DNA of 64,000 nucleotides from an uncultured Acidobacteriota bacterium. GTDB lineage: Bacteria > Acidobacteriota > Thermoanaerobaculia > Multivoradales > UBA5704. How positions within the stretch are numbered: the stretch's first letter is position 1; every line of letters starts with the position of its first letter. The translations under genes and the position numbers were made by a program. The notes below the pieces were generated by a model. It had not been told where the DNA came from. It ran no database searches and was given only the letters and a program-made list of their open reading frames with translations. Of this stretch, positions 62,874-63,002 are shown one piece after another. The stretch lies in NCBI GenBank assembly GCA_963761805.1, contig CAVXIV010000017.1:8667-72666 (forward strand), given 5' to 3'.

Positions 62874-63002
62874 ATGCGCGACAGGGAGACGCTGCGCGAG
62901 CTGACGGAGAACCATCTCGGCAGGATCGGCGGCGGCATCGGTCCGTCCGACCTCCCCGAAGACAGTTGCCATAAGACCTGCTGGTGCGACACGACGAAGT
63001 AG
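62874..63002 (+). CDS. Putative double-glycine RiPP/lanthipeptide precursor, 42 aa (absent from ORF track)
   Basis: MRDRETLRELTENHLGRIGG|GIGPSDLPEDSCHKTCWCDTTK; alternative in-frame ATG at 62856. Confidence 0.65.
   Translation: MRDRETLRELTENHLGRIGGGIGPSDLPEDSCHKTCWCDTTK

Follow-up and report, generated by a model that had tools for sequence, protein, structure and literature searches.

The window analysed here, a stretch of 64,000 nucleotides (G000:C17:8667-72666), comes from an acidobacterial genome of 8.06 Mb in 26 contigs, with ~68% G+C and 88.5% completeness. Near its right end lies a small open reading frame (ORF) that the original prediction had read as a second RiPP-type precursor, sharing its leader with a first precursor beside a LanC gene and belonging to a dispersed library with variable cores. 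Is this ORF a working precursor gene, and what does its leader and core tell of its family?

The ORF and its orthologs

A small ORF with a three-Cys core and several Ser/Thr is indeed present at 62874..63002; its product MRDRETLRELTENHLGRIGGGIGPSDLPEDSCHKTCWCDTTK carries three Cys and five Ser/Thr among the last 21 residues. The features of the locus are as follows.

62874..63002 (+): truncated precursor ORF; ATG start, 42 codons plus stop, reads MRDRETLRELTENHLGRIGGGIGPSDLPEDSCHKTCWCDTTK
62874..62936 (+): residual leader MRDRETLRELTENHLGRIGGG; double-glycine half kept (L-12, L-7, I-4, G-2, G-1), KKLxLx half gone
62937..62999 (+): core IGPSDLPEDSCHKTCWCDTTK; 21/21 aligned sequences keep its three Cys and the hydroxyl residues at S4, S10 and T/S14
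62694..62873 (+): retained upstream intergenic DNA, ~89% identical to the closest relative (G012); a weak GAGAGG precedes the ATG by 10 nt
62877..62886 (+): deletion junction; 137 bp of the closest relative missing, with imperfect 10-nt direct repeats flanking the lost segment in G012
63032..63061 (+): hairpin 3' of the stop; stem of 13 bp, loop of 4 nt, centroid -28.7 kcal/mol

The ORF sits in a gap between two minus-strand genes, the upstream one coding for a secreted 171-aa protein (likely start 62693) and the downstream one a small gene with its end at 63090. A 264-aa minus-strand ORF overlapping the candidate was dismissed as merely an upstream extension of the secreted-protein gene. Pfam scans of the candidate, of its 57-aa upstream-extended form and of six orthologs returned no family.

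The identity of the ORF was established by comparison with relatives. The G012 ortholog MKKQIAKKLVLNRETLRELTENLLGRIGGGIGPSDLPEDSCYKTCWCDTTK (P0001) matched it with an E-value of 1.5e-22 and 88% identity over residues 10-51 only, and the remaining genus ortholog matches begin at query residues 1-6. A family search gave some match in 35 of 41 genus genomes, and a DNA search of 40 relatives found the stretch in congeners, where its translation gives full-length precursors. Core-conserved copies occur in G012, G083 (two), G096, G018, G001, G016, G020, G022 (three), G072 and G094; the core IGPSDLPEDSCxKTCWC is present in no fewer than 11 of 41 genomes, and in soil metagenome proteins too. By homology, the core of the ORF belongs to an ortholog group conserved in the genus and in soil metagenomes.

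We aligned 21 sequences (alignment A3), leaving out G072, G094, two contig-cut G022 copies and P0003; the copies left out have an N-terminal leader too, and P0003 has it in full. All 20 aligned relatives encode a 46-54 aa precursor beginning MKK..KKLxLx, and the K-K-L-x-L block, present in 20/20 of them, is absent in G000 alone. Invariant columns are E, T, L, R and L in the leader and I, P, S, D, S, C, C and C in the core, with Thr or Ser before the second Cys in 21/21. Core residues S4, S10, T14, C11, C15 and C17 are conserved in every aligned sequence, making these Ser/Thr and Cys candidate thioether-ring formers. The G000 leader ends in GRIGGG, after which the core starts IGPS; Gly-Gly is present and the Gly columns are near-invariant. 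What this copy retains of the LxLxKx5L motif is only R-ETLRE-L, the Kx5L half.

The ratio dN/dS was 0.23-0.66 in 15/15 pairs of the six orthologs that have 51 codons (excluding three of different length), and the ortholog frame is therefore a real coding gene. A collection of 5.8 billion proteins held 13 clusters of the group, all with the full leader and 46-51 aa long, or 79 aa with an upstream extension; none of the 13 contained a 28-90-aa protein of the G000 form. Two of these clusters are named 'class I lanthipeptide' by NCBI, one of them from a Thermoanaerobaculia metagenome-assembled genome (MAG), a protein identical to the G012 ortholog bears the same NCBI name, and the collection assigns PF28317.1 to the orthologs. 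Scores against NF038153 (NCBIfam, lant_leader_L1a, 'class I lanthipeptide'; curated cut-off 22 bits) were 28.2 bits for the G012 ortholog, 32.5 for G020, 35.7 for G018, 35.3 for G083 and 34.5 for G096. The leader likeness claimed for the ORF thus does exceed chance, by virtue of its orthology to the G012 gene and that gene's 28.2-bit leader, not of the two window peptides alone.

Loss of the 5' end

Alignment of G000 with the syntenic G012 locus placed 137 gap columns exactly over the Shine-Dalgarno site, the ATG and codons 1-11, with 84-93% identity to G012 on both sides of the gap. A blastn comparison of the two agrees with a deletion, its two pieces overlapping by 11 nt. The lost segment starts 18 nt before a conserved TGAGGGG and ends at codon 11; gone with it are the ribosome-binding site GGAGAGGAGAG, the ATG, the residues MKKQIAKKLVL and the conserved 5' leader. 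In G012 the segment is bounded by the direct repeats GCGCTACAGG and GCTCAACAGG, 8/10 identical, the pattern expected of a slippage or microhomology deletion. An intergenic ATG is present in both genomes and in G000 was brought into frame, giving M-R-D-R-E-T-L, so that the first codons (M, R) of the residual leader derive from former intergenic DNA. Two soil-metagenome contigs, X3 and X5, match 62881..63002 with three differences each and before 62881 continue with full-leader codons, not with the G000 upstream DNA. A search of sequencing runs for the stretch gave 14 DNA runs, each with at most 0.14 of the sampled words, and no RNA run among those listed; none contained this organism's own copy. 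The deleted form appeared in 0/4 runs examined, which showed relatives' contigs only.

As judged from these alignments, the ORF is what remains, the 3' two-thirds, of a 51-codon precursor gene with an LxLxKx5L / Gly-Gly leader, and we hold it to be almost certain that the G000 copy is truncated relative to its orthologs. The reading as a second precursor is accordingly replaced by that of a 5'-truncated allele without the ribosome-binding site, start codon, 11 codons and 5' leader of its relatives. A single 137-bp deletion between short direct repeats would have removed all of these, and the intergenic ATG would then have been fused in frame to the remaining codons. The G000 copy is a defective member of a known precursor family, and its truncation is the new element.

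The segment upstream of the orthologous start codons is itself conserved. A block of ~105 nt before the ATG is shared by 9/9 genomic orthologs despite non-homologous wider contexts.

L040:1651-1745 (-), likewise placed in L042, L071, L043, L044, L045, L046, L047 and L048: conserved 5' leader, contains CGUUCCUCUCC

In an RNAalifold consensus structure, CGUUCCUCUCC pairs with the ribosome-binding site GGAGAGGAG over eight pairs, a model in which the 5' leader could mask the ribosome-binding site of the orthologs. Double changes occur in 3/17 pairs of the whole structure, and covariation support is weak because the eight CGUUCCUCUCC/GGAGAGGAG pairs are mostly invariant. Rfam gave no credible match on four ortholog loci (one miRNA model, E 0.28). 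An nhmmer search of the G000 genome with the ~105-nt block had a best E-value of 0.02, not near any family member, so the deletion took out the 5' leader entirely. A Shine-Dalgarno core of the AGAGGAG/GGAGGAG type is present in 9/9 genomic orthologs (GGAGAGGAGA in 6/9), ending ~4-8 nt before the ATG; the G000 ORF has only GAGAGG, 10 nt before its ATG. No sigma-70-like site was found in the retained upstream DNA (62694..62873), and a consensus promoter and terminator scan of 62500..63400 gave 0 promoter-like and 0 terminator-like sites.

Of the marks of a pseudogene, the ORF shows the loss of start codon and ribosome-binding site and is free of further decay (stops, frameshifts), all 42 codons of the remaining frame being open. 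As the remainder of the ORF shows no decay yet, we judge the deletion to be recent. Between G000 and G012 there are five differences in the 39 kept codons, and the dN/dS of 0.29 is uninformative at so few changes. Given the truncation, the G000 allele probably yields no mature product any more. Our overall reading, which we regard as likely, is that the G000 copy is a recent 5'-truncated remnant of a conserved precursor gene, most likely unproductive.

The hairpin reported after the stop codon is there, and its stem is strong in absolute terms; relative to its GC-rich context it is not, the 78-nt stretch that bears it having a z-score of only -1.78 (7/200 shuffles fold equally well). A U-run follows the G012 counterpart and none follows the G000 hairpin. 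We rejected the hairpin as a dispersed repeat, with two copies at <=3 substitutions and four with looser arms in the 8-Mb genome, against five for a direct-repeat control.

Leader family and candidate enzymes

A six-frame scan of the genome for the leader motif had been proposed, and it did bring out a family of ~50 leader ORFs. With a custom leader HMM built on 37 seeds from the same genome, chosen by a strict definition, we searched 116,349 six-frame ORFs; ~50 ORFs with an MKKxxKKLxLx[KR]ETLRxL...GG leader rank first, and nearly all their tails are Cys-rich, many cores having 4-13 Cys. Since the LxLx part is present in these ~50 G000 paralogs, a leader that lacks it is without intact precedent here. 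The candidate ranked 51 (14.0 bits, E 0.2) and the first precursor 53 (12.7 bits), with an unrelated ORF between them; both window peptides are marginal by the leader profile alone. At E <= 10, NF038153 matched 40 places in the whole genome, of which 22 exceeded the cut-off and only the first precursor is on this contig; the candidate had no match at E <= 1 and is not among the 40. In a family-level sample, 47/61 genomes had NF038153 matches.

Dispersal of the family was evident. Taking the HMM top 51 plus the first precursor, 45/52 leader ORFs lie >10 kb from any LanC, LanM, LanB or C39 match or on contigs without one, and the other 7/52 have a LanC-like or LanM gene no more than 10 kb away; these distances, measured between the ORF end and the start of the domain match, are approximate. 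The idea of a dispersed library with a shared leader and variable cores therefore holds as to dispersal and fails as to this core, which is conserved, not variable. The rank-46 leader-family ORF (G000 C12:409892-410209, +) has a Cys-free tail and may be a second degenerate family member. Our lanthipeptide literature search found no paper on a scattered precursor set in Acidobacteria or Thermoanaerobaculia, and none on a characterised product of the NF038153-leader family here.

The first precursor next to a LanC gene was confirmed, and the genome's candidate enzymes were located.

13927..14106 (+): first precursor, 59 aa, carries KRETIRTLSDSEAKLAAAG; NF038153 20 bits, below the cut-off of 22
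14140..15264 (+): stand-alone LanC-like gene beside the first precursor; PF05147, 68.9 bits
G000, whole genome: 11 LanC-like domains, two belonging to LanM proteins with an additional DUF4135
G000, whole genome: one DUF4135-only gene
G000, C14:426256: the one LanB
G000, C16:397629: the one C39 transporter, on another contig than the candidate

By eye, the LanC-like protein shows SWCHG and LCCGRTG, and its C-C-G in place of the usual C-H-G presumably resembles a ProcM-type zinc site. The gene is flanked by a transposase-like fragment (15225..15551) and permease fragments. A 116-aa fragment at 13118..13468 (-) is a near-repeat of the C-terminus of an 812-aa FtsX/MacB-like permease at 15653..18091 (-), 2 kb away, which suggests rearrangement around the LanC cassette. 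Just upstream of the first precursor end two very long ORFs of 1461 and 2969 aa (3..13255, +), with non-ribosomal peptide synthetase motifs seen by eye (HHxxxDG, SGSTGxPKG, GGxS, GWSxGG).

The candidate is as free of adjacent modifying enzymes as had been stated. A search of the whole 129.7-kb contig, 57 kb past the window end, for LanC, LanB, DUF4135 and C39 returned only the LanC at 14140, 48 kb from the candidate, which thus shares no cluster with a LanB and LanC. As for a synthetase beyond the 64 kb, the contig holds none, and LanB, LanC-like, LanM and C39 genes lie elsewhere in the genome. The fetched flanks of 11 ortholog loci likewise contained no LanB, stand-alone LanC or C39, with one LanM and one DUF4135-only gene among them.

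LanB presence followed that of the leaders across the genus. A strong LanB match, defined post hoc as best E <= 1e-50, was found in 36/41 genus genomes, 35 of which have NF038153 leaders, and the leaders were found in 0/5 genomes without one; 40/41 are concordant, counting genomes and not events, and the exception, G011, is 74% complete. This co-occurrence makes the lone LanB a candidate for the shared dehydratase, as a lead and not a proof because kin are not independent, and it may reflect a single clade. LanM had been considered as the cognate enzyme, two ortholog copies lying near DUF4135 genes, and was weakened by the neighbours of both. The G083 LanM, 3.6 kb from one of the ortholog copies, is directly preceded by a different precursor of its own and is only 38% identical to the G000 LanMs; the neighbour in G012 is a DUF4135-only gene that G000 lacks; and all other ortholog copies are on contigs without a DUF4135 gene. 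The G083 precursor (L071:13013-13261, +) has 82 aa and an AWKDPEYR...PAG-type leader and stands directly upstream of the 1093-aa LanM; by its sequence, the AWKDPEYR-type leader represents another leader family within the genus, distinct from the first.

In the relatives, the gene comprises the ~105-nt 5' leader, a 30-residue leader (MKKxxxKKLxLxKETLRxL...IGG) and the 21-residue core. A synthetase encoded elsewhere would dehydrate and cyclise the core, the likeliest being the lone LanB with a LanC and a LanM being less likely, and the single C39 transporter would cut after Gly-Gly and export the peptide.

Alternative readings and the wider locus

Against an unproductive remnant stands the possibility that the 42-aa peptide is still made from the fused ATG as a live precursor with a short leader, modified in trans and/or exported, which we think rather unlikely. 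In its favour, the frame is uninterrupted from an in-frame ATG that GAGAGG precedes by 10 nt, the residues at leader positions -1 to -15 match those of the orthologs in type, the hairpin and the upstream 180 bp are kept so that transcription is possible, and the genome has a C39 transporter and several LanC, LanM and LanB genes. C39 transporters read the double-glycine half of the leader, and that half (L-12, L-7, I-4, GG) survives complete. Yet the conserved 5' leader and the strong Shine-Dalgarno site are lost, the LxLx half that 20/20 relatives and ~50 paralogs have is missing, the scan gave no promoter-like site, and the protein collection holds no gene-caller product of such a form. A more elaborate version, to which we give somewhat less credence still, takes the ortholog group to be a conserved, translationally gated peptide with an anti-Shine-Dalgarno 5' leader, made in trans by the lone LanB and perhaps a signal; the G000 deletion would then have split the enzyme-recognition half (lost) from the export half (kept), and the short-leader peptide would still be made and exported unmodified or differently modified.

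It is also unlikely, though worth weighing, that the family is not lanthipeptide at all, its leaders being double-glycine/C39 export signals for disulfide-rich or otherwise modified peptides and its name a matter of leader likeness. The 45 leader ORFs with no enzyme within 10 kb, the many cores with 4-13 Cys and the lack of a characterised family product in our literature search fit this idea; the odd Cys number (three) of the ortholog group with conserved Ser/Thr before each, the LanB that tracks the leaders in 40/41 genus genomes, the seven leader ORFs beside LanC or LanM genes, and the LanM lanthionine formation proven in another Thermoanaerobaculia MAG, as far as PMC13083261 describes it, argue against it. 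That the organism truly has the full gene and the deletion is an assembly or binning artefact or a minority strain variant seems very improbable: the genome, in 26 contigs, has a completeness of 88.5% and no sequencing run containing the junction was found, but the loss is clean between 8/10 direct repeats, the usual slippage or microhomology signature, both flanks are collinear with G012, and unique 137-bp segments are rarely dropped by assemblers. A chance ORF with a chance motif, to which the missing NF038153 match and the 14-bit leader HMM score (E 0.2) might point, has a negligible probability given the G012 precursor match at a syntenic position and the purifying selection in the orthologs, and was refuted by the G012 alignment, that match and the conservation in A3. 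We thus retain the truncated remnant as the preferred reading.

Peptides with double-glycine leaders are cleaved and exported by ABC transporters that contain a C39 peptidase. The residual leader resembles them in its GG at -2/-1 and hydrophobic -4, -7 and -12, with a C39 gene on another contig, and cleavage is predicted. The GG/C39 link is stated in the passages of Walker et al. (2020, PMC7268733) on Bacteroidetes class I LanAs of the pinensin family, which describe LxLxKx5L leaders ending in Gly-Gly together with C39 proteases. The orthologs share L-x-L-x-[KR]-x5-L, Gly-Gly and a Cys/Ser/Thr-rich core with the LanAs described there (PMC7268733), whereas the phylum here is Acidobacteriota (class Thermoanaerobaculia, going by the NCBI name of P0001), the neighbourhood has no LanB, LanC or C39, and only the Kx5L half is left in the G000 copy, which fails NF038153.

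The prochlorosin analogy was apt in part. In the account given in PMC11667668, Prochlorococcus MIT9313 has 30 ProcA precursors and one LanM (ProcM), and here too many precursors with a conserved leader and differing cores lie mostly far from few synthetases. The analogy does not hold in detail for the leader, which is of the NF038153 type, no Nif11/NHLP family having matched either window peptide in an NCBIfam scan, or for the enzyme set: instead of one ProcM, G000 has two LanM and one LanB besides a DUF4135-only gene and some eight other LanC-like genes. The core of the ORF is moreover conserved across the genus, not hypervariable, and the likeness is one of gene layout alone. Within the same class, the ThaA/ThaM/ThaO cluster of a coral-associated Thermoanaerobaculia MAG has lanthionine rings shown experimentally, according to the description in PMC13083261; ThaA has a Cys-rich core behind an N-terminal leader as here (compared by description, not sequence), and differs in being clustered with its LanM and an oxidoreductase.

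For genome mining, the locus is a caution that motif scans for orphan RiPPs also catch truncated remnants resembling neat small ORFs with a terminator, and that live genes and remnants are told apart by ortholog comparison. The biology of the genus gains a conserved 21-residue core, a 5' leader predicted to mask the ribosome-binding site and the LanB/leader co-occurrence.

Around the ORF, G000 and G012 are collinear from a DUF885 gene to a DUF488 gene at 93-79% identity, with extra segments in each that by sequence mark the candidate locus as in flux. The G012 locus has an extra 2.1 kb with a secreted protease gene of 616 aa (HEWGH metalloprotease motif) and an extra 2.5 kb with the DUF4135-only gene (LanM N-terminal domain, no LanC domain).

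L073:4949-6919 (+) and L073:7738-9585 (-): two extra genes beside the G012 ortholog (DUF4135-only; 616-aa HEWGH), both absent from G000

The 616-aa HEWGH gene was discarded as part of the system, having no counterpart in G000 or the other ortholog loci. G000 in turn has an extra 1.4 kb (60736..62132) absent from the G012 locus, which lies inside an ORF (60481..62118) that matches no Pfam family and whose C-terminus is very rich in Cys.

Downstream of the candidate, tandem small genes at 63090..63284 (-) and 63358..63555 (-), syntenic in G012, encode Sec-signal peptides (MSRNRLFSLLIALSL...AQA) with mature parts of ~35 residues and six Cys each; against Pfam and NCBIfam they gave no credible match (a weak zinc-finger, E 0.025, far below cut-off). 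Beyond them, 63662..64000 (+), continuing to C17:72720, encodes a 130-aa protein with a signal peptide, several Cys and no Pfam family, 84% identical to a G012 neighbour. Further upstream, a possibly acquired segment (55997..58000) has a G+C content of 0.49 compared to ~0.66 around it and includes a gene of the beta-lactamase fold (PF00144, E 2e-68).
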